Source of the DNA: a virus
Strand: one strand, 5' to 3'
UHGV virus genome: UHGV-1372088
DNA: 64,000 nt
In this document: positions 20,201 to 46,946 of the stretch, piece by piece
Numbering within the stretch: position 1 is the first letter of the stretch
How the letters are laid out: the number at the start of each line of letters is the position of its first letter
The notes under the pieces: model-generated
The model's database searches: none
What the model saw: only the letters and a program-made list of their open reading frames with translations
What the model was told of the DNA's origin: nothing
Position numbers and translations under genes: made by a program

Positions 20201-23200
20201 GCAGGGCGACAGCATCACAACCCTGAATAATGGCCTGGCCACGGCGAACAAAGCCATTGGCACCAAGGCTGATGCCTCCGCGCTGTCATCGCTGCAAAAC
20301 ACCGTTACCCAGCAGGGTGAAGACGTTGCTGCCAACACCAACAATATCACTGCGCTGTCAAATCAGGTTGTCAACGGCAAGCAGGACACTTGGGCTCGCC
20401 GCATCTACAAGTGCCAGCTTGCCAACGCCGGCACCGAACCGACGTTTAGCGACATTCAGGGGCTTTCCCCGGTATTTATGGATGAAGTGGCCGACGCAGC
20501 CAGGATGGACTTCTCTGGCGCCGGATCGTATGTAGTCGCGCATTACAAGGCGATGGTTCGTGTTGCTGCGGATACCACCATCTCTGTGTCGCCTGGCTCT
20601 CGTGTGTTTGATGACTCCGGTGCGGTGTATGTGAATGGTGTTCGTCAGGCTGCTGCGTTGTCTGGAACAGCTGTACTCAATTTCACACTGTCCGCCGGCT
20701 GGAATACTGTAGAGTTTCTGGTTAACCAGTGGACCGGTAATGCCTATGTCAATCTGGGCTTCAAGCTGGGCGACAAGGTTGCCGAGCTGTATTCTGGTCT
20801 GGGCGTCTCTTCACTGTCTTCGGCGCTGAACTCGATCAGCTCCAACGTCAGCAAGGTGGGTGATCAGGTTTCCAGCAACAGCACGGCGATCACCTCTCTG
20901 AAGAACGGCCTGAGCGATACCAACTCTACCGTTGCGAAGAAAGCGGACGCTTCGGCTCTTCAGACGCTGCAAAACACGGTTACTCAGCAAGGTAAGGATA
21001 TTGCAAGCCAAAGCGACAGTGTTACGAATCTCAGCAACGCACTAAGTAACGTTTCTATTGGTGGCGTCAACCTGATCAAAAACTCAGGCGACATGGCCGG
21101 GTGGTCTGGTAAAACCAATGAAATCTTCCGTGGCAATGCGGTGATTAGCGCGACTACTAAAGCGGGCAGTTCCTACCGAGATCTCAAGGAGATTACTCTC
21201 GACGCTCCAGTCGACAATGCAGAGTACGTTTACAGTTTCTTTGCAAAAGGCGGTGAGAACGGCCAGAGCATGACCGCTTACTTCTACAATCCTAACTCGA
21301 CGATATCTAGTGTTAGTAGCCAGGGTGTGTCAGGCGGTGATGTCGATGGTCGTATGTCATTCACTTTGACAACTGAGTGGGTTCGTTATTGGGTTAAGTG
21401 GAAGCAGAAGCCGGGAACTGGATCTAAGAGACTAATCCTTGCTCGCATCCAAGCATCTTCGACGAAAGATCAGACCGTCTCTATCACCAGCCCTAAGCTG
21501 GAAGTTGGCAATATGCCTACAGAGTGGTCTCCGGCGCCGAGCGATATGGCATCGTCTAACGATCTGTCATCGCTGAAGACTACGGTTGACGCGAATAGCG
21601 GCGCTATTCAGTCTGTAACCTCTCGCGTCCAGAAAACTGAAGACAATATCTCCACGCAGAATACCGCGATCACTAAGCTTCAGGGTGATTTGTCGACCAC
21701 CAACAATCTGTTTTCCACGAAGGCTGATTCCACCGCGCTTCAGACGCTGTCAGGTCGCGTCGATAAGACGGAGTCCAGCATCAGCACCCAGAACGATGCA
21801 ATAACCAAGCTGAACAGCAGCCTTGATACCACAAATAAAGCTGTGGCTAAAAAGGCGGAGCAGTCGTCTCTCGATACGCTGAGCGGCCGGGTATCCAGCA
21901 CTGAAAATGGGATCACGGCGGCGAACTCCAGCATCACGTCTCTGAATGCGGCTATTCGCGCAGAGAACGCGAGCAGTGGGGATTTGATTACTAACCCTAC
22001 ATTTGACCCTCAGTACGCTCAGATGGGCTTTACCGTCGTCACAACCGACACAGATGGTGTTCCAGCAAACTGTCCATTCAGATATGCGGCTAAACTTGCG
22101 TCCCGTGACCATCATCCGAACTTCAACGCCATCGTTGCAACATTGGGCGATGTGTTTGAGATTTCGGTGCTGGTGGCGTGCGGCGCTGGGAATGCTGACT
22201 TTAACCTCTATCTTTGCACAGCAAACGGCCCAACTGGTGGGATAGGTGCCCCGCTTTATAATGGCGGAAATACCAAAGCTACAAGCACCTGGACTCGCGT
22301 AACATGGAAGTTCACTGTTAGCCAGGCAATGGTTGACAAAGGCTACATTCGTCCGTTCCTGCAAATCAACCAGTCTTCACCGTTCGGTACGATCTGGTAC
22401 GTCACTGACTGGCATATGCGCAACATCACTGCGGCATCAAAGGCGCAGGATACGGCGAATGCCACCTCTAAGGCGGTCGATTCTCTGACGTCCACGGTGA
22501 ACCAACAGGGCAGCGATATTTCCTCGATCGGCTCTCGTACAACGTCGCTTGAGAATGGTCTTAGCACCACAAACGCCAACGTTTCGAAGAAGGCTGATTC
22601 TTCTGCGCTTCAGACGCTACAGAACTCGGTAACACAGCAAGGCAATGACATTTCTGGCCAAGGTTCTCGCGTAACGTCTCTGGAAAATAACCTGACGGCC
22701 GGAGCAAACCTCATTCCTAACCCAGCGATGCTTAACGGCGCTCAGGGTTGGGGTGGTTCTGAGACAACTGTTGATGGTTACGCGGCGGTCGTCAGCAGCT
22801 CAGGCTGGGGACCATCGTCGTCCTACTTCCAAGTGACGCCAGGCGACATTATCGATTTGAGCCTGATGAGCCAGAGCGCGGGCGCAGCATCCATCTCATG
22901 GGGACTCCGCTTCGACGGCCCTGGACTGAGCAATTTCTGTCTCTACGCCCCTGCGTTGACCTTCGCGGCTGGCGAGAAGAAGAGTGTATCTGCGGCTATT
23001 ACCGTACCTGCTGGCGCAACAAAGGCGATGTTCCAGGCAAGCGCTAGGGCGACTTCCGCACGTACCGTATATAACATCATTGCTACCCGCCGTGATGCTG
23101 GAACCAAAGCCAACAGCTCTGCGATTGATACGTTGAACAGCACCGTCAAAACGCAAGGTGACACGCTTAGCTCGATCGGAAGTCGTACAACTTCGCTGGA

Positions 23201-26200
23201 AAATGGGCTGAGTAGCGCTAACAGCGCTCTCTCACTGAAAGCGGACGCGTCGGCACTGTCATCGCTGACAAATACAGTGACCCAACAAGGCAAGGATCTG
23301 GATGCAGCAGAAGCCAATATAACTGCGGCGAACACCAGCATCACCTCCATGCAGGCGTCTCTGACTCGTCGCACTGTATTTACGGTAACGGCGAAAGGCA
23401 ACGGTAACAGCGCTAATCACGGTTTCTTTGATGAGTCAGGTAAAAATCTGTTTACGCCTGGTCGCAGCTATGCGCTGATCACGTTTAAAGCGAATAGCGA
23501 CGGCTCGACGGTCATTAATACCAGCAAAACCTATGACGTTTTTGGCTCTGCCAACAACGGGAAGGCGATGTCTGACGATATTGCGGCTCTGGCTAATGGC
23601 GTTTACGTTTGCGTGATGACTTATGACGAGCCGTCGGGTCAGCGTAACTCGATTGCATCTGCCTTAGAGTTGCTCGGTGGCACAACTGAAGTTATTAACT
23701 CTCTGCCATATCGCGGCGCGTACATTCTCCTTGGCCGTAAAGGCATGAAGGCCGGCGACGGTCTGGAGTTACGCGCACCTACAGGTGGTGACTCCAGCGC
23801 ATTTATTTCCACGTCCGTTGAGTTTGTGAACGGGGTAATGATGGGGTTGGGCGCCGCCGGCGGTGTGATGATGAAGGCGGATGCGAACGCCAGTGCAATC
23901 ACCACTCTGCAAAACACCGTTAAGCAGCAGGGCGACACTATCGCTTCGAGCAGTAGTGCCATCACCTCTCTGCAAAACGACATGAGGACGGTTAATGACA
24001 ATGTCTCTAAAAAGGCAGATGCATCGGCGCTTCAGACTTTGCAGAACACGGTAACGCAGCAGGGTAAAGATATCTCTACCCAAAGCGCGTCGCTGACGCA
24101 GCTCAATAACAGCCTCAGCGCGACGAATGCCAGCATCGATGCGTCGGGCAAGATCCCTGGGAACCTGATCGTCAACTCGTCATTCGAGCGCGATAAAGAT
24201 GGCTACACCGGCTGGAGCTCTATCGCCTCCGTCATCGCAGCGTCGGTGCCACACTCAGGAAGTAAAATCCTCAAGCTGGCTGCCGGCGGATCTGTGTTAG
24301 TCGGGCAGGACGTTACCTATCTGAAGGGTCGCACCTATAAAATCGGCGCATGGGCTAAGCAGGATTCAGGCACCGTTATTCAGGCTGCGGACAACACGAA
24401 GTTCCGTATCGCGGATAGCACAGGTTTGCTGGCTAGTAGTGTTTACGGTCCTTTCACGTCAAACTGGCAGGAGATTAGCTTCACCTGGAGGCCGGGTAAA
24501 GATGTGACAGCGGCGACACAGATCACCGCCTACCTGTCCGCCGGTGCGATGTATTTCGACGACTTCTACGTTATCGACATCACCGACCGCGTCGATCTGG
24601 ATGCCACGGTGTCTGCGGTTTCCGGTCTGACGACGAGAGTGTCCAATGCTGAAGGGAATATTTCTTCCCAATCCGACAGCATCACCACTCTGAACAACGG
24701 TCTTAGCACTCTGAACAAGACGGTCAGCACCAAGGCCGATGCCACGGCGCTGTCTTCACTTCAGAATACCGTGACGCAGCAGGGCAAGGATATTTCGTCG
24801 GCGAGCGGAAGCATCACCAGCCTTCAGAGCAGCCTGAATACGATCAAGGTTCAGAGCAACCCTTGGATTGACGGTACGTTTGAAACCTATGACAACAATC
24901 AGCAGCTGGGCGGCAGCACTGCGATTGTAACGACGGACTTCAAGAACAGCGGCAACAAATGTCTGAAGGTTACTCGCCCAGCCAATACCAGCGGGAATTC
25001 CGACAAGACGATCGGCTCCTATTCTGCGGTGCGCCAGAGCGCGAAATATCGCGTTGAGTTTTGGGCTATGATGCCGGCAAGTGAAGCCCCGCCGTCTGGC
25101 TGGACTGTGGTCGTTGGTCTGCACTCCATCAACAAAGATGGTGGGAATGACTGGCAGGGCATTGCGTTCGACGAGGCTGGTCTTGGCGGTCGCGACCAGT
25201 GGGTTAAGTTTACTGGTGTAGTGAAAGTGAGTCCGAGCGTTACCCGTAGCCATGTATGGATTTCTACTCGTGGTCAGAGTGGCTCCAACACACCTGGATA
25301 CGCGGTGTACATTGATGATTTCGTCATTACCGATATCACTGATGCTGCGGATGCACAGGCTACGGCGGATGCGAACGCAACAGCAATCTCATCGTTGCAG
25401 ACGAAGGTCAGCGATATCGATGGGAAAGTGACTGCCCAAACGTCGCAACTGTCTTCCATGCAGTCGAAGGTAGATGCGTCTTCTTCGAAAGTGGATCAGC
25501 TGTCTAAGACCATTTCGGACAGTCAGAGCACTCAGGCATCGTTGAACACCAGTCTTCAGTCTCAGATTGATGCCCAGGCTTCGGCCAACATCAAAAACCA
25601 GGCTGATCTGAACTCGGCGGCCACGAGCATTGCGACCATTAAGTCTACGCAGTCCACACAGGCTACGCAGCTTAGCGCAATTGCCAAGCAGCAAACCGAT
25701 ATGACGGCATCGCTGGACAATCAGTCGGCATCTATTCAGACGCTTCAGGAGTCTGTCGCGAACAACGATTCTCTGAAGAGCACCTGGATGGTGAAGATGG
25801 AGACGAACAGCGCCGGCCAGAAATATGCAGCGGGTATCGCGCTGGGTGTGGATGGGAAGAGCCAGCAAAGCCAGTTCTTGGTTCAGGCAGATCGCTTCGC
25901 GCTGATTAATACCAGCAACGGCAATACGACGACACCGTTTGTGATCGATAACGGTGTGACGTACATGAATGCCGCTTACATCAAAGATGGGGCGATCACG
26001 AACGCGAAAATTGGTGGTGAGATTAGGTCTGACAACTTCGTAGACGGATCTCAGGGCTGGCGTGTCGGAAAGGATGGTTCTTCTCAGTTCCACAACGTCG
26101 TTGTCCGAGGACATGTTGAGGCCAACAGTGGATCGTTCAGAGGCGCTGTTTATGCTACTGACGGTTGGTTCCAGGGCACCGTATACGCGAACCGTATTGA

Positions 26201-26729
26201 GGGCGACATTGGTTCCTTCGCCATCAACATCGCACAGCACCGCACGCGTAAAGTGCCGAAGGCGACATGGCAATGGTTCGAGCTGGCCAGATTCCGTCGC
26301 CAGAGCTTCGACCAGGTGATCAACATTCGCGGCGGTCTATTGCAGACCGACAGCATCACCATCGACGGCGGCGCGAAACTCCGGGCGGGTATGTCGTATT
26401 CTTCCGGCGCAGATGGAGGCCTTAATCCAGGATTCCTGTCACACGCCATGTTGTTGCGTGCCACTGGCGCAACTTCTGGCGGCGGCAGCATGGAGATCGG
26501 CATTGAGCTTATGTACGAAACAGGTGGGTGGGACCGCCTGCTGACGGCACAAGGGGAGATGAACGTCGACAATATGTCGTTTGTTGTTCCAGCTGGCAGT
26601 GGGGATGCAGTTCTTCGTTATGGTTGTTATCTTGACCGTAACGGGCAAATGGTATTAACCATCCTTTCACGATTCGACGCTTTTTCGGCGCGGAATAACA
26701 ATGTAATTCGTGGATCGTCCACACCGTAA
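11217..26729 (+). CDS. giant central tail fibre / host specificity protein (lambda J-like N- and C-termini with about 10 inserted beta-sandwich + repeat-stalk modules)
   Basis: Uninterrupted 15.5-kb ORF (5170 aa); N-terminus resembles lambda gpJ; dozens of about 35-aa repeats (ADASALQTLQNTVTQQGKDI...SLNNSL.TTN.NVAKK); about 10 beta-rich domains each ending ..DDF.ViTDvTDA; C-terminus ADRFALINTS... J-like. Confidence 0.85.
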   Translation: MEQFKKRKLPEIIAGAGGKKSSGSSRTPVEADDTVNSNVKVSILDLLGEGVIGGLKDGAKSIFLNDLPLQNSDDTYNHSGVTWWFRDGSQDQSIIEGFDYTETPKTIGLQVKKTSAVTMAVDSDSADRFRVILKFPSLKSVDKKTGDTSGTSVTYKFQVSSAGGAFVDVAPEGESSGTVTLTAKKAGVYYRSYILNLPKPGSKYQVRVVRVTDDNKDTTYLANDIYVDTVGEIINTNMNYPNSALVGLRVNSEQFGSSMPSRSYLISGMKIRVPSNYDEVTNEYRGTWDGSFKLMSSSNPAWILYDLVTNKRYGLGEFVRESMFDLGQLYQIGRYCDALVDDGFGGKEKRFAINTQITTLQDAYRCVQDIAGAFRGMVYWAGGMVHVTQDSPSDPIAIYSNSNVIDGRFSYKGSARKDRPSVALITYNNKEDNYKQNIEYVEDLEAIERYGIRKTESVAFGCTSRGMAHRVGLWTLYTGRMESDVITFQTGMDSAFLVPGDVILIHDKFRAGRRNSGRVVASTANSITLDSTVDMTKAGTITFINAEGRMISRDILESGVVSKVTFKDAVNEADRPVADGIWVISQSDLKPLQARVVGVTQGEDGVGSTITCIQNNPSKYAAIDDGAVLIPQNTTVLDPTFSKPENLKITEGTYLSSPGNLNVSLTATWEGKSAEYWVSWRRSDAGNVSNWQTAKVNEEQFEVKPVAESGKYDFQVYGVSVSGRKTEILSTTYQVLGTMTPPGAPSSLTAVGDYRQIILGWSNPSSVDLDHIQIYASKTNDVTKATLLAKSTTTNFTHSGLEDSVTWYYWIRSANKRGMTSDWSSKLGTSAMTRDVLSFLQNKITESELAKDLLADIDSKAVAAEVDASIEDAKSEATAQVEAAKKEASSALSAAQVTLNNAINQEATDRNNAVADEAKQRSQAISAEADARTKAISDEAIARADAITKESDTRTRAMADEVTARNKAVADEAAARTKAVSDEAVARAKAVSDEVAARTKAVADEATARAKAISDEAAARATAISDSVAVEATARAKAIADSASSLSDKIEKEVTDRVKAVSDLDTKTANAISSESSSRIAAISDEAKTRADAILQEKNSRQAEIKNVSAQMQTANESLAQQISQVAAGTGEQFDSLKIWYFDAQTTEGWSGNKSAILSADGWIRSGNGVDAWLTSPAGLAIAGASYRFMKMRIRKVGNPVWEGAIRWITKSGDSFNNTNFITVSEPEYNAQGVATLTASDIKWNNDTVHQIRLDLSISTDDSNYIEVDWIAVGRPTPGAGMAALQDEKTARTNADAAEAASRSTLATQLRGSYDGTDITKLSSGLIFQEQQARVTADKVEATARQSLETKVNDSVSSINKSLDTLNTKDQAMASDITGLKSSLDDKADASAVQTLKATVEQQGSNISTQGQSITKLQGDLNTTNTNVGKKADQTAMTALQGTVTQQGKDIAAANSSISTLKSSLDTTNDAVAKKADATAVSDLSSRVSATEGSVSSQGDSIVQLNNSLSNALADSDASAKTPNNLIVNPSFERGMDGYIGASSLSTVVTVQIPHVGTKALKIDPGSSVSPGQYIDFVKGRTYEIGVWVKQVSGTTDNGQGNNKLRVGNSAGAPVFEVPFANLTIDWTKVSKRWKATETGSLPVTLSNYLTAGNRYFDDFYVIDVTDAVNIDASASAISSLQSTVTQQGKDISSQSTSIAGLNNSLNTTNENVAKKADSSAVQTLQNTVTQQGKDISAANSDITNLKGSLDATNDKVATKADASAMSDLASRVSQNEKGIATQSDSLTKLSNKVSSIDVGGVNLITNGDMSAAPVSLLSTTTSFKSFDRTVTADVRGMSVVTPRSITLSVWFKELSSGFGTTKPFTSVVIGKSAAGDNWGVRFYASNGSVSQKGDMFVWTGTINLKAGDTLFNDPTTIRFILEDKTQKTGAIFYRVKLENGNIATDWSASPDEVKSGLDANASALNALTTRVASTEGNVESQGNSITSLKNDLATTNANVSKKADSSAVATIQSTVTQQGKDIASSASDISSLKNSLATTDSNVAKKADASALQTLQNTVTQQGKDLTSVGNRATALENSLKTTNDNVATKADASALSTLQNTVSQHGDSIASQSDSITSLKNSVGSLVNMGDNLVQDSSFDNGGQTFRTQQNSGTSGSIVAFGAFGENSAGVRMVKVNGTSPGLFANGKLPVPVNGARKYRYIVRAKGVSGAMNMLLRRWNFNGNTEGAYEDKNNTLTTDWQTITWDTSFSPKDGVDGQSFGIYCHPNNGEIWIDSFQVFDITDATNNETTASALSNLSTTVSRQGETVTSQGTAITKLQNDLSSTKTDLAKKADASALQTLQSTVTDQGKTLTSQGDAITALNNTVNTVKGDVAKKADSSALQNLQSTVTQQGKDISTNASNITALTGNLATTNAAVATKADASALNNLTTRVTQNEKNISSQSDAVTKLSNTVSNIAVGSANLIPNSGTMEGWSDVISDTYRGNKVFSFTRKANSSSYVQSNEIVLAGPVDSDSYVYSFWAKAAKDGTVINAYFYNPSNTTGSETSQGVKGSSSDGSAAITLTTSWARYWVKWTHSPTTGTKRFIPARLNNSSTADQTVFISSPQLETGNVVTDWKAADSDFASASALSTLTSRVTSDEGVISSQGSAIADLKNSLATTNSTVATKADASALSSLQNTVTKQGTDLKSASDSITTLKNSIAATDANVAKKADASALQTLQSTVSTQGDKIASQGNSITSLGNSLDTVKGDVAKKADTTALNNLSTRVSNAEDKISSSSDAITSLNSSLNQQSKRGANILPDGTFESYSSGYNITNGRVIVTADDSHGGNKCIRVTRPNDYTNYTDNSDNHIFSGFQVRDNAVFYVECWVKLDAKSTTMDGSVQIAVGMSLQYQDNSWQWPALIKSAKDLSADTWTKVSGYLKSSKSGIKQAMVRISIPNVSTVKAGNSFLVDDFVITDVTDAYNAQQTADATASAVSTLQTTVSRQGDSITSQGDSITTLNNGLATANKAIGTKADASALSSLQNTVTQQGEDVAANTNNITALSNQVVNGKQDTWARRIYKCQLANAGTEPTFSDIQGLSPVFMDEVADAARMDFSGAGSYVVAHYKAMVRVAADTTISVSPGSRVFDDSGAVYVNGVRQAAALSGTAVLNFTLSAGWNTVEFLVNQWTGNAYVNLGFKLGDKVAELYSGLGVSSLSSALNSISSNVSKVGDQVSSNSTAITSLKNGLSDTNSTVAKKADASALQTLQNTVTQQGKDIASQSDSVTNLSNALSNVSIGGVNLIKNSGDMAGWSGKTNEIFRGNAVISATTKAGSSYRDLKEITLDAPVDNAEYVYSFFAKGGENGQSMTAYFYNPNSTISSVSSQGVSGGDVDGRMSFTLTTEWVRYWVKWKQKPGTGSKRLILARIQASSTKDQTVSITSPKLEVGNMPTEWSPAPSDMASSNDLSSLKTTVDANSGAIQSVTSRVQKTEDNISTQNTAITKLQGDLSTTNNLFSTKADSTALQTLSGRVDKTESSISTQNDAITKLNSSLDTTNKAVAKKAEQSSLDTLSGRVSSTENGITAANSSITSLNAAIRAENASSGDLITNPTFDPQYAQMGFTVVTTDTDGVPANCPFRYAAKLASRDHHPNFNAIVATLGDVFEISVLVACGAGNADFNLYLCTANGPTGGIGAPLYNGGNTKATSTWTRVTWKFTVSQAMVDKGYIRPFLQINQSSPFGTIWYVTDWHMRNITAASKAQDTANATSKAVDSLTSTVNQQGSDISSIGSRTTSLENGLSTTNANVSKKADSSALQTLQNSVTQQGNDISGQGSRVTSLENNLTAGANLIPNPAMLNGAQGWGGSETTVDGYAAVVSSSGWGPSSSYFQVTPGDIIDLSLMSQSAGAASISWGLRFDGPGLSNFCLYAPALTFAAGEKKSVSAAITVPAGATKAMFQASARATSARTVYNIIATRRDAGTKANSSAIDTLNSTVKTQGDTLSSIGSRTTSLENGLSSANSALSLKADASALSSLTNTVTQQGKDLDAAEANITAANTSITSMQASLTRRTVFTVTAKGNGNSANHGFFDESGKNLFTPGRSYALITFKANSDGSTVINTSKTYDVFGSANNGKAMSDDIAALANGVYVCVMTYDEPSGQRNSIASALELLGGTTEVINSLPYRGAYILLGRKGMKAGDGLELRAPTGGDSSAFISTSVEFVNGVMMGLGAAGGVMMKADANASAITTLQNTVKQQGDTIASSSSAITSLQNDMRTVNDNVSKKADASALQTLQNTVTQQGKDISTQSASLTQLNNSLSATNASIDASGKIPGNLIVNSSFERDKDGYTGWSSIASVIAASVPHSGSKILKLAAGGSVLVGQDVTYLKGRTYKIGAWAKQDSGTVIQAADNTKFRIADSTGLLASSVYGPFTSNWQEISFTWRPGKDVTAATQITAYLSAGAMYFDDFYVIDITDRVDLDATVSAVSGLTTRVSNAEGNISSQSDSITTLNNGLSTLNKTVSTKADATALSSLQNTVTQQGKDISSASGSITSLQSSLNTIKVQSNPWIDGTFETYDNNQQLGGSTAIVTTDFKNSGNKCLKVTRPANTSGNSDKTIGSYSAVRQSAKYRVEFWAMMPASEAPPSGWTVVVGLHSINKDGGNDWQGIAFDEAGLGGRDQWVKFTGVVKVSPSVTRSHVWISTRGQSGSNTPGYAVYIDDFVITDITDAADAQATADANATAISSLQTKVSDIDGKVTAQTSQLSSMQSKVDASSSKVDQLSKTISDSQSTQASLNTSLQSQIDAQASANIKNQADLNSAATSIATIKSTQSTQATQLSAIAKQQTDMTASLDNQSASIQTLQESVANNDSLKSTWMVKMETNSAGQKYAAGIALGVDGKSQQSQFLVQADRFALINTSNGNTTTPFVIDNGVTYMNAAYIKDGAITNAKIGGEIRSDNFVDGSQGWRVGKDGSSQFHNVVVRGHVEANSGSFRGAVYATDGWFQGTVYANRIEGDIGSFAINIAQHRTRKVPKATWQWFELARFRRQSFDQVINIRGGLLQTDSITIDGGAKLRAGMSYSSGADGGLNPGFLSHAMLLRATGATSGGGSMEIGIELMYETGGWDRLLTAQGEMNVDNMSFVVPAGSGDAVLRYGCYLDRNGQMVLTILSRFDAFSARNNNVIRGSSTP

Positions 26730-29839: not shown

Positions 29840-30070
29840 GTTAGTTGCAGCCTGATTAATGTCTGCACATCGTCGCAACGTAACGCATTTTGAGACGTTC
29901 TAATCGTTACTGGTACGTTTGCTTATCGACCCTCTCTCCATGCCACCAGCACCCCAATCCCTTCGTTTAAAACGACACCCAAGCCAAGCTATTGCATTTT
30001 ACAGCGAATCGAAAAGCGGCTAGTATTCCCTAAACAAGAAAACAACATGTTTACTAACGAGGCAGTGTAT

Positions 30071-30736
30071 ATGCAAACTACCGTTATAGTTGTTGGTGGA
30101 ACAAAAGGCGGACCGGGCAAATCAACAATCGCCCAGCAAATAGCCGCCTATCTCATCCTGAAAAAGAAAAAAACCGTGTTCATTCTCGACATCGACCCCC
30201 AGATGACGACCGCTCGCTGGTGCGAAGACCGCTCTGAGAATGAAGATTTGACCATCATCCCATTCGCCGCCAAACAGCACGATATCGATCAGACTATCGC
30301 CAGCTTGCGAGGAAGATATGACTTTGTGGTTATCGATGCAGGGGGCTTTGACTCCGACATTCAGCGACATGCTCTGAGACACTCTGACGTCGTTCTTCTG
30401 CCGCTAAGACCGAAACGTCGCGATCTGCGTTCACTTGGCGATGTGGATACCGTTGTCGCGGCAGCCAGAGCGTCTAATCCAGATCTGAAAGCCTACGTCG
30501 TCATGAATCAGTGTCCGTCATTGCCGTCTCAGGCGAAGCGCATTCTGGTGGCGAAGGATGTATGTGAGACGTTTGGTCTGGAAACCACACCGGTCAATCT
30601 TTACAACCGCAACGTGTACGACGATGCAGAGTGGGCGGGGCGTTCCATCTTTGAAGTGACTGGCTCTGAACGTGATCCGAAAGCGGAAGCGGAAATTCAA
30701 GAAGTCACCAATTTTATTCTTTCTGGAGGTAATTAA
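30071..30736 (+). CDS. parA: ParA/Soj-family partition ATPase
   Basis: Deviant Walker A VVGGTKGGPGKST at N-terminus, ParA-like length; followed by small DNA-binding partner gene. ATG 30071 preferred over 30047 (RBS GAGG). Confidence 0.75.
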   Translation: MQTTVIVVGGTKGGPGKSTIAQQIAAYLILKKKKTVFILDIDPQMTTARWCEDRSENEDLTIIPFAAKQHDIDQTIASLRGRYDFVVIDAGGFDSDIQRHALRHSDVVLLPLRPKRRDLRSLGDVDTVVAAARASNPDLKAYVVMNQCPSLPSQAKRILVAKDVCETFGLETTPVNLYNRNVYDDAEWAGRSIFEVTGSERDPKAEAEIQEVTNFILSGGN

Positions 30737-30738
30737 GC

Positions 30739-31179
30739 ATGGCGGACGATTTGAAGAAGGCTGGTGGGTTTGGTGACTTGACAAGCGGTGCTCGTCAATC
30801 GAAGCGCATCGAAGAAGCCGACAAACCGGCTCGCGTATCAAACAAGACCCAAGGCGCTCCACTGAAAGGTAAGACGGCAATCAGAAGTCGCACCATCAGC
30901 CTGGAAGAAGAGTACGTTGAGTTCATGGAAATTCTGGTTAAGCGCCTTCCTGACCTAAGTCTGTCACGATCAGATATCGTCCGTGTTGCACTGGTCGCTC
31001 TCAGCAAGATGAAAGCCGAGAAGCTGAAGTCTGTCATCGAACAGAACCGTTTGACCACCAGCAATGAAGTCGGTCTTCGCATTACCGAACTGGAACGAGA
31101 GTTCGACAAAGCCGAACGAGAAGAGCTGTTGAAGACTATCACGCCGGAAGAGTTGGAAAGGCTAATTGACCGCAGCTGA
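30739..31179 (+). CDS. ParB-like centromere-binding partner
   Basis: 146 aa, Lys/Arg-rich N-terminus, helical C-terminus; immediately downstream of parA and upstream of repeat region. Confidence 0.45.
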   Translation: MADDLKKAGGFGDLTSGARQSKRIEEADKPARVSNKTQGAPLKGKTAIRSRTISLEEEYVEFMEILVKRLPDLSLSRSDIVRVALVALSKMKAEKLKSVIEQNRLTTSNEVGLRITELEREFDKAEREELLKTITPEELERLIDRS

Positions 31180-39822: not shown

Positions 39823-39899
39823 TACCCAATGCGACAAAACGGTAAGTCGAGAGGATGCTGAGTCCGATGATGCAGGTTCGAGTCCTGCTTGGGTGACTT
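39823..39899 (+). tRNA. tRNA-like element (acceptor, U8, D-arm, T-arm GGTTCGAGTCC; anticodon arm defective)
   Basis: TACCCAA/TTGGGTG acceptor pairing, D-stem CGAC/GTCG with GG in loop, T-stem GCAGG/CCTGC; no CCA; possible pseudo-tRNA. Confidence 0.3.
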
Positions 39900-40716: not shown

Positions 40717-40849
40717 TGTCGACTTGGCCTCTTCGGAGGCCATAGCCGAAAGACTGATTGCGATTGTTCTTTCGGCTGTGACTCGACCCATAGCAACTCC
40801 ATTGTATCGAGATAGACACGATAGAAACTTTTGTTCGCGCAAAAACCAA

Positions 40850-40873
40850 AGGAGCCGAAAGGCTCCTTTTTTG
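40850..40873 (+). terminator. rho-independent terminator
   Basis: AGGAGCCGAAAGGCTCCT hairpin + T6. Confidence 0.65.
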
Positions 40874-40887
40874 TATCAGGAGAAAGG

Positions 40888-41709
40888 ATGACCAGCAAAA
40901 CTATCAACCCACCGCTGAAGTGGCCAGGCGGGAAGCGAACCGTGATGGGGTTCATCAACCAACACTTCCCAGAGGGCCGGCGACTCATCGAGCCATTCGT
41001 CGGTGGCGGTTCCGTTTTCCTGAATGCCGGGTTTGACCGCAATCTACTGAATGACGTCAACCCGGATCTGATTAACTTTTACCGCCAGCTGGTGGCCGGT
41101 GGCGCCGGTTTCGTTGAAATGGCGAGAGAGCTGTTTTCCAAAAACAGTGAAGGCGAGTATTACGACATCCGTGAGAAATTTAGAGCGCGAGATTCTGCGC
41201 CGGATATTCAAGCAGCCTACTTCCTGTATCTCAACCGGCACTGTTTCAACGGGCTGGTCCGCTACAACCAGGCTGGTGCGTTTAATGTCGGGTATGGGAA
41301 ATACAAAGCGCCCCATTTCCCAGAGGCAGAGATGCTTGCGTTGATCCAGATGGCTGGCTTGCGAGAACTGGCGTTTGTTTGTGGCGACTTCGACAGTGTC
41401 ATAGAGGAAGCGGGGGATGGTGACGTTGTATTCTGCGATCCGCCATACGAACCCATGCCAGATAAAAATGGCTTCACAGCGTACTCAGGGGCGACCTTCA
41501 GCTTCGCGGACCAAGAGCGTCTGACTCGTCTGCTGATCGCGGCCACGGAGCGTGGGGCGCGTGTGATGATAACCAATAGCGGAGCGCCAAAGATTCTGGA
41601 GCTGTACCACAACAACGGATTCACGCAGCGCCGGTTATCCGCTCGTCGCTCCATCTCATGCTCAGATTCCGGGCGTGAGACGGTAAGTGACGTGTTGGCC
41701 ATTATTTGA
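40888..41709 (+). CDS. dam: DNA adenine methyltransferase (Dam/D12-class N6-MTase)
   Basis: N-terminal KWPGGK...EPFVGGGSVF (AdoMet-binding motif I) and catalytic DPPY motif; ATG 40888 with RBS AGGAGAAAGG. Confidence 0.8.
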   Translation: MTSKTINPPLKWPGGKRTVMGFINQHFPEGRRLIEPFVGGGSVFLNAGFDRNLLNDVNPDLINFYRQLVAGGAGFVEMARELFSKNSEGEYYDIREKFRARDSAPDIQAAYFLYLNRHCFNGLVRYNQAGAFNVGYGKYKAPHFPEAEMLALIQMAGLRELAFVCGDFDSVIEEAGDGDVVFCDPPYEPMPDKNGFTAYSGATFSFADQERLTRLLIAATERGARVMITNSGAPKILELYHNNGFTQRRLSARRSISCSDSGRETVSDVLAII

Positions 41710-41788: not shown

Positions 41789-42544
41789 ATGGGTTTACCA
41801 CGTAAGAAGGCTCGCAAAGCAGGGAAAGGGGATCACGCATTACGCGGTCGTCGCGCTGATTACATCATTGTCGATGATCTGGCAGACGTCCAGACCCCGC
41901 GCTCCAAGCGGGACAATACACCCATTGAAGCACGTAATGAGGCTCAGGGTCATTACCTGGCCAACATTCAAGCCAAGTCGCTAATCATCGCCACCGGCGA
42001 AGCCGGCTGCGGCAAAACGTTCCTGGCCACCGCGTATGCTGCGGACCGTCTGCTTGCGAAAGACGTCCAGCGCATTATTGTTACCCGCCCCGTACTGCAA
42101 GCTGAAGAAGATTTGGGCTTTCTTCCGGGTGATGTGGGTGAGAAGTTTGCCCCCTACTTCCGACCCGTCTATGACGTTCTCCAGAAGCGTCTGGGCGCGT
42201 CCTTCCTCGAATACTGTCTCAAGCCAGAAGTCGCCAAAGTAGAGATCGCCCCGTTCGCTTATATGCGTGGCCGGACGTTTGAGGACGCTGTGGTCATTCT
42301 GGATGAAGCGCAAAACGTTACACCGTCACAGATGAAAATGTTCCTGACCCGCATGGGCGAGAATGTCACCGTCATTGTGAACGGCGATGTGACACAGTGC
42401 GACCTTCCGTTGGAGATTGAGTCCGGTCTGGACGATGCTCTTCGCCGCTTCAAACCCAGCCGTGATGTGGGGATGGTCGAGTTCTCGTTAGAAGATTGCG
42501 TCCGCTCTGACCTCTGTAAAGTTGCACTAGATGCCTACCAGTAA
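41789..42544 (+). CDS. phoH: PhoH-like ATPase
   Basis: P-loop GEAGCGKTFLATAYA; PhoH-family length and downstream motifs. Confidence 0.75.
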   Translation: MGLPRKKARKAGKGDHALRGRRADYIIVDDLADVQTPRSKRDNTPIEARNEAQGHYLANIQAKSLIIATGEAGCGKTFLATAYAADRLLAKDVQRIIVTRPVLQAEEDLGFLPGDVGEKFAPYFRPVYDVLQKRLGASFLEYCLKPEVAKVEIAPFAYMRGRTFEDAVVILDEAQNVTPSQMKMFLTRMGENVTVIVNGDVTQCDLPLEIESGLDDALRRFKPSRDVGMVEFSLEDCVRSDLCKVALDAYQ

Positions 42545-42554
42545 GGAAACACAA

Positions 42555-43100
42555 ATGTCCAGAGTGGTATTGCCGAAATATCAAAGCATTAAAGTTGTGG
42601 AGGCGGCCAAGATTGCGAGAATCCACGGTCAGGTAATGCTGTTATCCTTCTGCAATCATGTAACACGCTCTGAATTGGGCCACGTTACCAAAGTTGAAGT
42701 AGAACAGAATTACATCGACAAACATCAGCCGCAAGTTGGCGGATATTACGTTCGTTACGAAGATGGATATGAGTCCTACTCACCACAAGACCCATTTGAA
42801 TCAGGTTATTTGCCGCTCGAAACCGCTATCCATGCCGCCAAAGTCGGTGCATCTTTTGGTATTGCGATCGAGATGCTGAAAGACGGCCATCGCGTCGCTC
42901 GCAAAGGCTGGAACGGCAAAGGTATGTTCTTGCGCATGGTGTCAGGCAAACAGTACGACGTCGCTTGCGGCATTGCTCGTGATCTGGAGCTGGCGCCCTG
43001 GATTGGGATGAAAACAGCGGACGATAAGTTTGTTCCCTGGCTGGCCAGCCAGAGCGATATGCTGGCTGAGGATTGGGTGATTGTGGAGGTCGCTAAATGA
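42555..43100 (+). CDS. hypothetical protein (KGWNGKG motif, DUF2829-like)
   Basis: 181-aa ORF; RKGWNGKGMFL motif recalled from a phage-associated domain of unknown function. Confidence 0.4.
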   Translation: MSRVVLPKYQSIKVVEAAKIARIHGQVMLLSFCNHVTRSELGHVTKVEVEQNYIDKHQPQVGGYYVRYEDGYESYSPQDPFESGYLPLETAIHAAKVGASFGIAIEMLKDGHRVARKGWNGKGMFLRMVSGKQYDVACGIARDLELAPWIGMKTADDKFVPWLASQSDMLAEDWVIVEVAK

Positions 43101-43342
43101 AAGACCAGCACACCAAAATCAAAGGCTATCGTGATCTGTCGGCTGAGGAAATCGCGCTGATGAACGAAGGCAAAGAGCTGGCCCAGAAAGTCGGCGAGTT
43201 CGTTGAGAAGCTGGAGCGTGCTGAGTTTGCCAAAACTGGCGATGAAGTACCGGACAAACGCTGGCTTGCCATCGGTAAAACCGACCTGCAAAAAGGCTTT
43301 ATGTCTGTGATCCGCAGCATCGCAAAACCAACAACTTTCTGA
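43097..43342 (+). CDS. small hypothetical protein
   Basis: 81 aa, start overlaps previous stop. Confidence 0.35.
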   Translation: MKDQHTKIKGYRDLSAEEIALMNEGKELAQKVGEFVEKLERAEFAKTGDEVPDKRWLAIGKTDLQKGFMSVIRSIAKPTTF

Positions 43343-43349
43343 GGCTGAG

Positions 43350-43568
43350 ATGACTCCAGAACAATTTGCATATTGGTTACAAGGGTTCGTCGAGCTCAAT
43401 GGCCAGCAACCGACTGACGCGCAGTGGGACAGCATTAAAGAGCACCTGCAAACCGTGTTTAAAAAGGTGACGTCGTCCGTGCCGCCTACAGGTCCAGTCC
43501 CTCGTGGTGGCCTGGAGCAGCTTCGTGGCTCGGCACTTGATCAAACTCTCTTATCATTATCTTGCTAG
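43350..43568 (+). CDS. small hypothetical protein
   Basis: 72-aa ORF. Confidence 0.35.
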   Translation: MTPEQFAYWLQGFVELNGQQPTDAQWDSIKEHLQTVFKKVTSSVPPTGPVPRGGLEQLRGSALDQTLLSLSC

Positions 43569-43576
43569 GAAAACGC

Positions 43577-43825
43577 ATGAAAATTACCATCTACGGTAAA
43601 GAAGACTGTTCATACTGCAAACGTGCGGTTGAGCTCTCCAAACAGCTTATCGAACGTGGTTGCGCGGATTCGTACACCTACTTCAACATCGTCGAAGAGG
43701 GGTTCGACGCGGCGACACTCAGTATTATTTTGGGCCGACCGGTCCGAACCGTTCCGCAGATCCTTGTCGATGGGGTCGCCATCGGCGGGTATACGGAACT
43801 GGCCACACTCGCTACAACGCTTTAA
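43577..43825 (+). CDS. glutaredoxin/NrdH-like redoxin
   Basis: MKITIYGKEDCSYCKRA: CxxC active site in the classic glutaredoxin N-terminal context; 82 aa. Confidence 0.7.
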   Translation: MKITIYGKEDCSYCKRAVELSKQLIERGCADSYTYFNIVEEGFDAATLSIILGRPVRTVPQILVDGVAIGGYTELATLATTL

Positions 43826-43831
43826 GTCACA

Positions 43832-43860
43832 AAGGCCCGGTCTAACCGGGCCTTCTTCTC
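43832..43860 (+). terminator. rho-independent terminator
   Basis: AAGGCCCGGTCTAACCGGGCCTT hairpin then CTTCTCC. Confidence 0.6.
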
Positions 43861-43943
43861 CCCGCACCGCCTTCCTCAATTTGTAGACACGAACGCAAAA
43901 AGAGATTAAATTAGCTCTAAATTTAGAGTTAATCGGAGGTTTT

Positions 43944-44195
43944 ATGTTCACTGAAACGGTACTGGCCAAACGCACATCGTCTATTAGCGAGTTCAAGAAG
44001 AACCCGTCCGCCGCAATGAGTGAGTCGCATGGCGAGCCTGTCGCTGTCCTGAGCCACAACAAGCCGGCCTTTTACTGCGTCCCACCTGCTCTGTTTGCCC
44101 TCATGATGGACCAGATTGGCGACCAGCTCCTTCTGGATAAGGCTATGTCTCGACTGGATGATGATGAGGTGGAAGTCACCCTGGATCAGCTTTAA
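43944..44195 (+). CDS. Phd/YefM-family antitoxin
   Basis: 83 aa; ...SISEFKKNPSAAM...EPVAVLSHNKPAFYCVP matches the Phd/YefM antitoxin fold signature; acidic C-terminus; immediately upstream of toxin with TAATG overlap. Confidence 0.6.
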   Translation: MFTETVLAKRTSSISEFKKNPSAAMSESHGEPVAVLSHNKPAFYCVPPALFALMMDQIGDQLLLDKAMSRLDDDEVEVTLDQL

Positions 44196-44518
44196 TGGGC
44201 GACAATTTTACAACAAAGCTGACGTTCAAAAGGCTTGCTCTGGCCGAGTGGGAGTCGCTATCCACACCCATAAGGGATAAGTTCAAGAAGGTTTTGGCTA
44301 AGCGTCTGGAGTCACTGGATTCGCTGACGATGCCGAAAAATAGGCTCTCTCTTCAGCATAATTGCTACAAGATTAAGCTGAAGAACGACGGCTATCGTTT
44401 GGCCTATACGGTAAAAAATGACGAGTCCGGCACCGTCACCGTCGTAGTAACTGTCGTTGCGGTGGACCGCCGTGATGAAATTTACAATGAGTTGAAAAAG
44501 AGACTTAATGACGAATAG
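44195..44518 (+). CDS. RelE/ParE-family toxin
   Basis: 107 aa; C-terminal ...CYKIKLKNDGYRLAYTVKND...VTVVVTVVAVDRRDEIY matches the RelE/ParE pattern (yRirvGdyRviY...ilrighRkdvY). Confidence 0.6.
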   Translation: MGDNFTTKLTFKRLALAEWESLSTPIRDKFKKVLAKRLESLDSLTMPKNRLSLQHNCYKIKLKNDGYRLAYTVKNDESGTVTVVVTVVAVDRRDEIYNELKKRLNDE

Positions 44519-44558
44519 AGAACGGGAAAATAAACCCGCTCTGGGCATAAGGCAGAAC

Positions 44559-44867
44559 ATGACCACCGAAGAAATGCGCGACTTCCTTTTGCAAAACAAC
44601 TTTATGCGCGTCAGACAGCTGGAGGATGGAAGTTGGATCGGCACGATGAAGTTGATGTTCACCACGTCAGTTTGCATGGACATCGATGAGCTTTCCCCCT
44701 TCCGCTATCGCTGGTGCTTCGCGGACCCGGAGGAAGCGAATCACTTCTTTGATACGGCAGTCGACTTTGACGAAGTTCCGACTCGTCGAACGTCACTGAA
44801 AGGACACCGGTATCGGGGAGAGCCTTTGCTGCGCGAAAAAGACGAATTTGGATTTGATAAATGGTAG
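44559..44867 (+). CDS. hypothetical protein
   Basis: 102-aa ORF from ATG 44559. Confidence 0.35.
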   Translation: MTTEEMRDFLLQNNFMRVRQLEDGSWIGTMKLMFTTSVCMDIDELSPFRYRWCFADPEEANHFFDTAVDFDEVPTRRTSLKGHRYRGEPLLREKDEFGFDKW

Positions 44868-44903
44868 GCGCAAGCCTGCCAGAATCCACCATAACCCACC
44901 TTC

Positions 44904-44934
44904 TTGATTCCATACTTATATAGTATGGAATCAA
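44904..44934. promoter_or_regulatory. perfect 31-bp palindrome (13-bp arms TTGATTCCATACT, 5-bp AT spacer) 60 bp upstream of recombinase gene; candidate recombination site or operator
   Basis: TTGATTCCATACTTATATAGTATGGAATCAA read directly; arms are exact reverse complements. Confidence 0.55.
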
Positions 44935-44993
44935 AGGTAAAATGAAGCTATATTTGGCATCATCCTGCCACCCATTTCCTATCAGGGAGCGTT

Positions 44994-46016
44994 ATGAGCC
45001 TCGACCTCGATCACCAAAAAGCCATCGAAAACAGTTCAGTTGAGACAGTCGCCTATCTGGAACAGTGTCGGGCGATGTCCGGCAAGCAGCTGCTGGACGC
45101 CCCGGACGAAATGACATTTGAGATGGGCTTCCGCATTTTCACCAGGCTTTCACTTCTCGTCACCCGGCGCCGGCCGGAGATAGCGGTCCACTGTGTCCTG
45201 ATTCACATCATGCCGATGTTGCAATCAAAACAAATTGCCGCCATAAAGCGATCCGACATTAACAAAATCATAAATGGCCTGGTGCTGGACGGCAAGATTG
45301 TCCAGAGCCGACGAGTCTTTTCTGTTATGAAACAGTTCCTTAGCTGGTGCGAGTTCCAGGGCCACATCGAGACGTCGCCCCTGGCGTCCATCTCGCTAAA
45401 TAAGGTTGCCGGCGGCGTTCGCATGAAGCCGAGAGAGCGGATCTTGAGCGACGAAGAGATAAACCTGTTCTGGACGATGTGGGATTTGGCCGACGTTGAC
45501 GACTGCACCAAGTGGGCCGCCCGCCTCATTCTCTGTTCAGCCAGAAGACCGGATGAGGTGCTAAGGGCCAGGCGCAGTGAGTTCGATCTTGATAGAGATG
45601 TATGGAATCAGGGTACGCGCAACAAGTCCGCAAGACGACACACACTCCCCATAAGTCCAATTATGAGGGAGTGTATTGAGTCATTGTTTTTGGCCGGAGG
45701 TAACAGCGAGTGGCTGGTTCCGTCAAAAAGAAGGGAGGGCAATCCGGTATCCAAAGTGCTGATTTCTCAGGCATCACGTCGGATACAGGGATTGTCCTAC
45801 AGTGGATTTAATGAACCTTTTGAGATTCGAGACTTAAGGCGCACAGCCAGAAGTGCGTTTTCGCGCCTTAAGATCTCTCAAGAGGTAGCACGACAAATTA
45901 TGAATCACTCGCCAGAAGGTCTGGATAACGTATACAACAAGCACGACTACTTGGATGAAATGGCCGAAGCTATGTTGAAATATTCAACCTTTTTAAGAAG
46001 TTGCATTAAAGGGTAG
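44994..46016 (+). CDS. int: tyrosine site-specific recombinase/integrase
   Basis: 340 aa; C-terminal catalytic region ...RDLRRTARSAFS...IMNHSPEGLDNVYNKHDYLDE (R..HxxR...Y pattern of tyrosine recombinases). Confidence 0.75.
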   Translation: MSLDLDHQKAIENSSVETVAYLEQCRAMSGKQLLDAPDEMTFEMGFRIFTRLSLLVTRRRPEIAVHCVLIHIMPMLQSKQIAAIKRSDINKIINGLVLDGKIVQSRRVFSVMKQFLSWCEFQGHIETSPLASISLNKVAGGVRMKPRERILSDEEINLFWTMWDLADVDDCTKWAARLILCSARRPDEVLRARRSEFDLDRDVWNQGTRNKSARRHTLPISPIMRECIESLFLAGGNSEWLVPSKRREGNPVSKVLISQASRRIQGLSYSGFNEPFEIRDLRRTARSAFSRLKISQEVARQIMNHSPEGLDNVYNKHDYLDEMAEAMLKYSTFLRSCIKG

Positions 46017-46386
46017 ACTTCAGACGCTCTATCTCCGCCGTCAACTCTTCTTTGGATTTCTTCAGTAGTTCGTTTTCTTTACGGAGTGCGTCGAGGTCTG
46101 CCTCGAACTTCTTCACCATCTTCTCTTCACGGGTGGCGAAGTGGTTGAAAATGGCAGGCTCGCGTTCTTCCAGAACCATCATCATAAATTTGTGGCCGTT
46201 GATTCCAGTTGCATAGGCAAATGGAAGGACGCGGTCGAATGATAGATGTGTTTTCCCGGCCTTGATAATTGAGAGAGTGTTTACGTTGGGGAACCCCACT
46301 TCAGTCGCTATTTGACCTTGTGTTTTTCCAGAGTCGATTATAGCCGCATCCATGAGGGGGCGGTATTTGCCGATATCTACTGTCAT
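46006..46386 (-). CDS. HTH (XRE-type) transcriptional regulator with C-terminal coiled coil
   Basis: 126-aa minus-strand ORF; TQGQIATEVGFPNVNTLSII helix-turn-helix; leucine-heptad C-terminus; convergent on recombinase, facing an AT-rich 340-bp non-coding region. Confidence 0.55.
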   Translation of the reverse strand: MTVDIGKYRPLMDAAIIDSGKTQGQIATEVGFPNVNTLSIIKAGKTHLSFDRVLPFAYATGINGHKFMMMVLEEREPAIFNHFATREEKMVKKFEADLDALRKENELLKKSKEELTAEIERLKSTL

Positions 46387-46724
46387 TTAATTCACCTTTT
46401 CGATGATATTTGAAGTTTGCTGCTTGTTTGTTGTTCTATGAGAATATCTTAACTAAGTAAGTACATACAATATAGCACAGATAAATATACAGATACACAG
46501 CATAAAAACAAGTTAAGGTCATCGCCTCAATAACTACTTGTTTAGGTAGGTTTTTTTAACTTGACAACCATCAAGGCCAGTAACAATCTTTTACAAAATG
46601 GCAGAATTATGTCAAAAATGTGAATTTATTAACTTAAGAATATTCCTTTTATTGTAATTGCAGAGTATATTCACGCTTATATTTTTGATAGATGTGAGAC
46701 TTACAGGGATAAGGTTTTTGAAAT

Positions 46725-46946
46725 ATGCAAGATACAATCAATTCGCTGGAAAATTTGAAGGTTATGACCTCCCTTATCCTTTCGCGGGAGGTGGCGGCAA
46801 CACTAAGTGTTGATTATCAATTCACCCCTATCAACGAGCAATGTCAGGATCTTCTGGCCTCTGTTCTGACGTCCGGCGACAAGAAGTTCGCGGTCATGCA
46901 GCACCCCATCAACAGCACCCTGGCCATCATCTACCGCTTCGTTTAG
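46725..46946 (+). CDS. small hypothetical protein
   Basis: 73-aa ORF in otherwise non-coding AT-rich region. Confidence 0.25.
   Translation: MQDTINSLENLKVMTSLILSREVAATLSVDYQFTPINEQCQDLLASVLTSGDKKFAVMQHPINSTLAIIYRFV

Follow-up and report, generated by a model that had tools for sequence, protein, structure and literature searches.

Toxin–antitoxin (TA) systems are recognized persistence modules of phage-plasmids (PMC11652158, PMC7969092). In P1-like elements phd-doc is a persistent gene pair, and both TA and restriction–modification (R-M) systems have been recorded in the SSU5 shell genome (PMC7969092). Among the plasmid-borne systems, StbDE, which was isolated as a plasmid stabilizer, stabilizes plasmids, inhibits translation, and is bacteriostatic (PMC3827094). 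Hybrid TA pairings are well documented, and the Phd antitoxin superfamily as listed by Leplae et al. includes StbD as well as YafN (PMC3141249, Table 2). Here we describe a TA gene pair at positions 43944–44518 of the virus genome UHGV-1372088, of which a stretch of 64,000 nucleotides (the window) was analysed. The window represents an SSU5-like Klebsiella phage-plasmid, a plasmid prophage of SSU5/pHCM2 type. We propose that the pair is a type II TA module of the StbD/StbE kind with addiction as its most likely role, and put the probability of this explanation as a whole at roughly 0.8.

The pair consists of two small genes on the plus strand that share a single base, with one recognizable ribosome-binding site upstream of the first:

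43944–44195, plus strand: antitoxin gene, ATG start, 83 amino acids (aa)
44195–44518, plus strand: gene for the predicted RelE-type toxin, ATG start, 107 aa
44193–44197, plus strand: TAATG stop/start overlap (TAA at 44193–44195, ATG at 44195–44197, one base common to both)
43935–43939, plus strand: Shine–Dalgarno GGAGG, 4 nt 5' of the antitoxin ATG, read off the sequence

No strong ribosome-binding site precedes the toxin gene, as would fit translational coupling to the antitoxin gene, and the 1-nt overlap is kept in every intact homologous locus. A preliminary description of the window had called these two coupled reading frames a Phd/YefM antitoxin followed by a RelE/ParE-superfamily toxin, quoting the motif GYRLAYTVKNDESGTVTVVVTVVAVDRRDEIY from the second protein. 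The reading frames, their overlap, and the motif are all present, and both family calls were borne out by Pfam scores above the gathering scores. The Prokaryotic Genome Annotation Pipeline (PGAP) also labels the pair as Phd/YefM antitoxin and RelE/ParE toxin in near-identical Klebsiella plasmids.

The toxin matched PF05016 (ParE_toxin) over residues 10–93 with 31.4 bits against a gathering score of 23, though this family spans the whole RelE/ParE superfamily despite its name. Narrower comparisons all pointed to the RelE branch. Among the PHROG families the toxin matched phrog_1213, 'RelE-like toxin' (6.1e-12), and a phmmer search of all Protein Data Bank (PDB) sequences returned only E. coli RelE chains (E = 6e-14 to 4e-13), with no ParE, HigB, YoeB, YafQ, or other toxin at E ≤ 10. 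BLASTP against E. coli K-12 RelE from NC_000913 gave 40% identity (E = 5e-20). In a family alignment, RelE residues K52, K54, R61, R81, and Y87 correspond to toxin residues K59, K61, R68, R93, and Y97. Across 19 full-length family members K59, K61, R68, R92, and Y97 are invariant and R93 is conserved in at least 90%. The predicted catalytic codons are as follows:

44369–44371, plus strand: K59
44375–44377, plus strand: K61
44396–44398, plus strand: R68
44468–44473, plus strand: R92 and R93
44483–44485, plus strand: Y97

The AlphaFold2 (AF2) model of the toxin has the topology of RelE, with a strand at residues 5–11, helices at 13–21 and 24–37, four strands, and a final helix at 95–106. When this model was searched with Foldseek, the top six matches were free, RelB-bound, and ribosome-bound E. 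coli RelE (probability 1.0), of which ribosome-bound RelE reached the highest TM-score (up to 0.80). All of ranks 1–10 were RelE structures; ParE appeared only from rank 11 (TM ~0.4, E ≥ 6e-3), and HigB had a probability of about 0.1. Three observations weigh against this assignment. The equivalence to R81 requires a two-residue gap, and an ungapped HMMER alignment instead places D91 at R81 with R92 and R93 directly after it; the AF2 model has only moderate confidence (pLDDT 69.5); and the toxin falls under the curated cut-off of the NCBIfam model TIGR02385 (RelE_StbE), at 14.8 versus 27.9 bits. This last miss weakens membership of that curated subfamily model, not RelE homology, and because of it we regard the toxin as a somewhat divergent RelE member. 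From sequence and modelled fold together, we conclude that the toxin would act as a RelE-type ribosome-dependent mRNA interferase and not as a ParE-type gyrase poison. A Doc-type toxin was also considered and rejected, as Foldseek recovered the RelE fold and there was no Fic/Doc Pfam match to the toxin.

The antitoxin matched PF02604 (PhdYeFM_antitox) at 31.0 bits, a marginal pass of the gathering score of 29.8, and phrog_2268, 'antitoxin', at 3.3e-17. Precomputed PF02604 matches exist for 31 of the 33 antitoxin homologues found, and N-terminal residues 4–61 resemble YafN (6.7e-11). The protein is laid out as a Phd/YefM-fold N-domain (residues ~10–47), a long helix (48–70), and an acidic C-terminal tail ending in VEVTLDQL. 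Its AF2 model (pLDDT 88) shows a beta-alpha-alpha-beta-beta arrangement followed by the long helix and an extended tail. With this model, the top 35 Foldseek matches in the PDB were all Phd/YefM-fold antitoxins (probability 0.6–1.0), though with weak E-values (≥ 0.014), the protein being so small. They include PfiA, YefM, Phd (also in the operator complex 4zm2), M. tuberculosis RelB1/RelB2, and the VapB46 N-domain. The M. tuberculosis antitoxins among them partner RelE toxins. Membership of the RelB/DinJ ribbon-helix-helix antitoxins was rejected, since both the Pfam score and the predicted fold give a Phd/YefM N-domain. We also observed that the best PDB sequence matches of the N-domain (window positions 43944–44110, residues ~18–55) are to the DnaT N-terminal domain (family-profile E = 3e-4; NCBIfam DnaT, 2e-6), which reflects kinship of that domain with Phd/YefM/YafN-type antitoxins.

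The tail of the antitoxin resembles a different protein. Its C-terminus, VEVTLDQL, compares with VRVTLDEL in RelB, and the hypothesis of a RelB-like tail was formulated on this basis before a profile search was run. When a hidden Markov model built from 27 antitoxin sequences was searched against the PDB, the sole matches other than DnaT were RelB residues 53–79 and the RelBc peptide, collinear with profile positions 58–83 and running to the final residue. In structures 4fxe and 2kc8 this segment is bound to RelE. The match is weak (PDB-wide E = 0.1–0.17, conditional E = 1e-6 to 5e-6). BLASTP with the single antitoxin sequence aligned only the last 8 residues with RelB (E = 0.058), hhalign missed the match when run with a shallow profile of 6 sequences, and BLASTP, hhalign, and sequence searches detected no similarity between the N-terminal part and RelB. 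These results give weak to moderate support to a modular antitoxin in which a Phd/YefM DNA-binding domain is joined to a RelB-like, RelE-binding tail.

The two genes also travel as a unit. We found an 83-aa gene followed by a 106–108-aa gene, with the same 1-nt overlap, in six independent contexts: a chromosome (a contig of 439 kb, with thyA on one side of the pair and the ppdA-recC region on the other), a 326-kb Erwinia megaplasmid (adjoining malM/lamB), another enterobacterial contig, and three phage-plasmid lineages. On an IncI1 conjugative plasmid, a pair annotated as 'plasmid stabilization protein' and RelE/ParE toxin is related to ours at 42% identity for the antitoxin (E = 1e-20) and 45% for the toxin (E = 1e-23). 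Relatives of the toxin were detected by tblastn in 2354 PLSDB plasmid records versus 5 phage records. Identical copies of the antitoxin were seen on 282 contigs and identical copies of the toxin on 62, and in IMG these proteins are named 'antitoxin StbD' and 'mRNA interferase RelE/StbE'. Across the three phage-plasmid lineages dN/dS was 0.03–0.06 for the antitoxin and 0.06–0.09 for the toxin, with dS near saturation at about 0.8–2; such low ratios at near-saturated dS indicate that both genes are maintained by selection. Judged from both Pfam scores, the RelE match, and recurrence in unrelated genomic contexts, the gene pair is more than a chance arrangement.

Sequences around the pair suggest that it has its own transcription unit, with the following candidate signals:

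43832–43854, plus strand: terminator-like hairpin after the upstream glutaredoxin gene (grx), AAGGCCCGGT/ACCGGGCCTT then TTCTTCT, a 10-nt perfect inverted repeat with a T-rich tail
43884–43912, plus strand: putative sigma-70-type promoter-like site, TAGACA, 17 nt, TAAATT
43910–43933, no strand: candidate operator, a 24-bp imperfect inverted repeat holding the perfect 14-bp palindrome CTCTAAATTTAGAG (43915–43928)
44516–44543, plus strand: hairpin overlapping the toxin stop, AGAGAACGGG-AAAAUAAA-CCCGCUCU, -12.7 kcal/mol, z = -2.4

The hairpin after the glutaredoxin gene appears to mark the 5' edge of this unit. The palindrome, which occurs once in the window, sits between the -10 hexamer and the ribosome-binding site, and the larger inverted repeat overlaps the promoter-like site. 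Homologous loci elsewhere have T(A/G)GACA and TAAA(A)T hexamers upstream with the spacing kept, and all of them carry TTAG-containing repeats or palindromes at the equivalent position, though their arrangement differs between lineages. This layout of promoter and palindrome is as expected for antitoxin autorepression, and by analogy with Phd/YefM antitoxins the palindrome would be the site of operator binding. The hairpin at the toxin stop has no U tract and is not a canonical terminator, and terminator calling gave none there, so read-through from the toxin gene into the next gene is likely; the hairpin may stabilize the transcript or attenuate this read-through. No Rfam RNA element was found in or near the pair, the sole Rfam match in the window being a tRNA at 39823–39896.

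Family membership makes the molecular identity and mechanism of the module, A-site mRNA cleavage by a RelE-type toxin held in check by a Phd/YefM-type antitoxin, very probable. The dedicated promoter would transcribe both genes, with the TAATG overlap coupling translation of the toxin to that of the antitoxin. The antitoxin would bind DNA through its Phd/YefM-fold N-domain and would neutralize the toxin by wrapping it with the C-terminal helix and tail. Most likely, the antitoxin or the antitoxin–toxin complex represses the promoter via the palindrome covering the transcription start region. Free toxin would enter the ribosomal A site, cleave mRNA there, and arrest translation. We infer toxicity, neutralization, lability of the antitoxin, and autoregulation in this scheme, as we do the biological role. 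The most likely effect is addiction, in which cells losing the element would undergo post-segregational growth arrest; we favour this because the pair lies on a low-copy plasmid prophage.

The carrier fits such a role. The preliminary description had spoken of a phage with partition genes, and this stands: the window encodes a tape-measure protein, a tail fibre, a DNA polymerase, RecA, a gp32-like protein, and a DnaB-like helicase, together with the following locus:

30047–31179: partition locus, a small ParA-type ATPase gene (30047–30736, 229 aa; MipZ/AAA_31/CbiA matches), 2 nt, then a 146-aa open reading frame (ORF) without family assignment

The 146-aa ORF presumably encodes the centromere-binding partner of the ATPase. 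The locus at 43500–45000 is 98–99.5% identical to four non-mobilizable Klebsiella plasmids of 104–114 kb, and megablast found no match to it among 50,697 phage records, leaving the element represented only among plasmid-deposited records. 

Several genes for counter-defence functions lie upstream of the pair. A Tad2-like gene (42531–43100; PF11195, 90.4 bits; PGAP name DUF2829) and an Acb2/Tad1 hairpin gene (43097–43342; PF24729, 59.5 bits) both belong to counter-defence families and lie immediately upstream of the glutaredoxin gene and the TA cassette. Near them are genes for a Dam methylase (40831–41709) and PhoH (41789–42544), and in some relatives a Sequestin-domain gene (PF21825) replaces PhoH and Tad2. 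Together, Dam, PhoH, Tad2-like, and Acb2/Tad1 look like a counter-defence cluster, and the neighbourhood of the pair is an accessory defence/counter-defence region beside a conserved tyrosine recombinase gene.

Comparison with related elements delimits the pair as a cassette between the glutaredoxin and tyrosine recombinase genes:

~43827–44558 (~730 bp), plus strand: TA cassette; relatives without the pair (L006 and L007 in our set) align to the window up to 43826 and again from 44559

These boundaries are approximate, the flanks being only about 67–72% identical. We surveyed the slot in ~27 PLSDB plasmids that have the upstream phoH-grx segment in common and found the intact pair in 4. In another 7, the promoter and antitoxin are kept and a 6.3-kb type I R-M cassette replaces window positions 44198–44288, corresponding to toxin codons 1–31. 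This cassette, with the gene order hsdM-hsdS-hsdR, lies at 11339–17656 in L005 (NZ_CP084809.1) and is also present in L002–L004. The decapitated toxin remnant has in addition a 12-nt in-frame deletion, with loss of VSVV. Two such remnant proteins alone occur on 56 and 54 contigs, where the PGAP label is still 'RelE family toxin', probably an annotation artefact. The remaining 16 relatives had no match to the pair, and in the two examined grx is directly followed by the next gene. Two further lineages also hold intact pairs in this slot, and their toxins share 84% and 78% identity with ours; the presence of pairs in diverged lineages suggests that the pair is old in this slot and that its absences are probably losses. 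The base composition of the cassette (GC 0.46–0.53) is the same as that of its flanks and gives no sign of foreign origin, and no obvious direct repeats or target-site duplications were seen by eye at its edges, without a systematic search.

The gene just 3' of the slot (44559–44867, with an alternative start at 44508), here ORF3, matches phrog_24748 (8.8e-40, function not assigned) and is always found in this position whether the pair is present, absent, or disrupted; searches of Pfam, the PDB, and PADLOC gave nothing for it. In the window it probably shares a transcript with the pair. A coupled three-gene system, in which the ATG at 44508 would overlap the end of the toxin gene, was considered and rejected: relatives without the pair keep the ORF, which aligns only from 44559, PGAP places the start at the equivalent of 44559, and the ORF survives where the toxin is destroyed. 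ORF3 is thus an independent neighbour and not a third gene of the module. Beyond ORF3, a second putative TA pair, encoding a 127–180-aa protein and a 138-aa YafO-family toxin (PF13957), lies before the tyrosine recombinase gene in several relatives:

L002, 4688–5619: YafO-type pair
L005, 18274–19205: YafO-type pair
L007, 9496–10427: YafO-type pair
Window, near 44868–44993: equivalent site

The window has no equivalent of this pair, and in other relatives an unrelated reverse-strand 194-aa gene fills the same interval.

As for what the module is selected for, we give addiction or selfish persistence an even chance of being the main role. The preliminary description had read the pair as an addiction module, and this holds as the simplest role, though not as a core maintenance function of the phage-plasmid family, given that the cassette is optional and sits in a variable slot. 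Two findings speak against stabilization: the relatives in our survey that lack the pair (~16) or have a disrupted toxin (7) are evidently all maintained, and the cassette has counter-defence genes as neighbours and occupies a slot taken by an R-M system in relatives, a setting that would fit a part in defence or competition equally well.

The same module may instead have been selected for anti-phage defence by abortive infection, as the preliminary description had also allowed, or for competition between mobile elements, and not for stabilization, a possibility that we consider real but unlikely. In such a route, an infecting phage would shut off host transcription, the labile antitoxin would be depleted, and the freed RelE would halt translation. 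The Tad2-like and Acb2/Tad1-like genes adjoining this variable accessory slot, the type I R-M system and YafO-type pair found there in relatives, and the dispensability of the pair for maintenance in most related elements are all consistent with this role. So is the literature, in which an R-M-bearing Klebsiella plasmid of the SSU5-like kind is reported to defend against phages and plasmids (PMC8969562) and TA modules are increasingly linked to phage defence (PMC10440598, PMC10865869). However, no PADLOC-DB v2 defence model matched the antitoxin, the toxin, ORF3, or the neighbours at E ≤ 0.01, the homologues are overwhelmingly plasmid-borne in the record counts given above, no trigger or sensor component is evident, and the characterized stbD/stbE genes were isolated as plasmid stabilizers (PMC3827094). 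A related and more doubtful idea is that the cassette, lying in a defence/counter-defence hotspot, is more than an addiction module and serves as a weapon with which sibling phage-plasmids compete and superinfecting phages are fought off. The orphan antitoxin of the R-M sublineage could then be an 'anti-addiction' immunity gene that lets this lineage displace elements bearing the pair.

It is similarly doubtful that the cassette is a purely selfish hitch-hiker, persisting by its own addictive property and benefiting neither the phage-plasmid nor the host. The patchy distribution of the pair among related elements, with losses and disruptions, would suit this explanation, as would the movement of the identical module between chromosomes, plasmids, and phage-plasmids and a base composition like that of the flanks. 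Its occupation of the same slot in three lineages, at a dS of about 0.8–2 and under strong purifying selection, argues instead for long vertical maintenance. Yet a selfish module would show the same pattern, and sequence alone does not separate selfishness from addiction.

Two further explanations fare much worse. The pair in the window could be an inactive relic annotated by homology alone, as relatives do hold decayed toxin copies, with 31 N-terminal codons replaced and 4 aa deleted, that PGAP still labels as toxins. This is very unlikely for the window copy, which is full length with every conserved residue intact, retains the promoter, ribosome-binding site, and overlap, and has a dN/dS of 0.05–0.07 against intact copies in other lineages. 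The most improbable reading of all makes the toxin a poison of DNA gyrase like ParE, which the name of its best Pfam family and a weak match to the ParE-like family PF15781 (E = 0.002, under its cut-off) might suggest. ParD/ParE membership was rejected, since PF05016 takes in the whole superfamily, PDB sequence matches are to RelE only, ParE structures rank below every RelE structure, and the catalytic Lys, Arg, and Tyr of RelE are conserved.

Other features of the window were observed away from the pair. A single ORF of 5170 aa (11217–26729) downstream of the tape-measure gene presumably encodes a giant tail or host-recognition protein. The tRNA mentioned above is a tRNA-Gln with anticodon CTG (39823–39897), called by both ARAGORN and Rfam (31 bits, just over the gathering score), in an ORF-poor stretch at ~38.9–40.1 kb. 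Farther downstream, an AT-rich intergenic stretch (46400–46850; GC 0.29–0.35 versus about 0.5 elsewhere) is flanked by a divergent 126-aa coiled-coil/regulator-like ORF (46006–46386, minus strand; XRE/HTH in relatives) and a CobT/VWA-like gene, and could be a regulatory or origin-like region.

As a finding, the pair holds up but is unremarkable: its family, its hybrid design, its occurrence on plasmids and phage-plasmids, and the exact proteins were already known and annotated, and as a standard RelE-type TA module its importance beyond annotation is limited. Our analysis adds that the toxin belongs to the RelE and not the ParE branch, that a RelB-like tail is probable on the Phd/YefM antitoxin, and where the boundaries of the cassette lie. 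It also adds that the cassette is an optional occupant of a variable slot that takes R-M and YafO modules as well. In a widespread sublineage the toxin was decapitated when an R-M cassette inserted; the antitoxin there is an orphan, and pipelines still annotate the remnant as a toxin. Many of the public entries labelled 'RelE family toxin' among related Klebsiella elements are shortened remnants. Knowing which lineages keep an intact addiction module is useful for curing or engineering these clinically common Klebsiella phage-plasmids.

The known systems each share part of this arrangement. The preliminary description had compared the pair with phd-doc of P1, and the comparison holds for the antitoxin fold and presumed role, as well as for the location of both on a plasmid prophage, but not for the toxin, which is unrelated to Doc. 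Doc has a Fic fold and is a kinase acting on EF-Tu, whereas the toxin in the window is predicted to be a RelE-fold endoribonuclease; moreover, the window pair is optional in its family, unlike phd-doc in P1-like elements. With YefM/YoeB and YafN/YafO the likeness lies in the antitoxin N-domain, which resembles YafN by sequence and YefM by fold. The toxin is not YafO and has no sequence match to YoeB at E ≤ 10, although YoeB is in the same toxin superfamily as RelE. E. coli K-12 RelB/RelE, from the Qin prophage, is the closer system on the toxin side, sharing 40% identity, the catalytic residues, and the fold, and the relBE genes likewise overlap by 1 nt. Compared with RelE and the IncI1 toxin, the toxin in the window is ~12 residues longer, with a short N-terminal extension, insertions in the loop between helices 2 and 3 and in a beta-hairpin, and two residues fewer before the catalytic Tyr. 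The last ~26 residues of the antitoxin are RelB-like and its N-domain is of the Phd/YefM type, whereas the DNA-binding domain of RelB is a ribbon-helix-helix.

The closest characterized architecture is that of StbD/StbE, known from R485 of Morganella morganii and pEP36 of Erwinia pyrifoliae; homologous pairs annotated as 'plasmid stabilization protein' and RelE/ParE toxin occur on IncI1 and other enterobacterial plasmids. The R485 and pEP36 systems are likened here by their description, and the sequence comparison runs via the IncI1 pair and the IMG names. The carrier differs, being a phage-plasmid here and not a conjugative plasmid, as does the toxin, which scores under the RelE_StbE cut-off of TIGR02385. 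The two systems have in common an upstream antitoxin of ~83 aa from the Phd superfamily, an overlapping downstream gene for a RelE-type toxin, and a plasmid-borne location.

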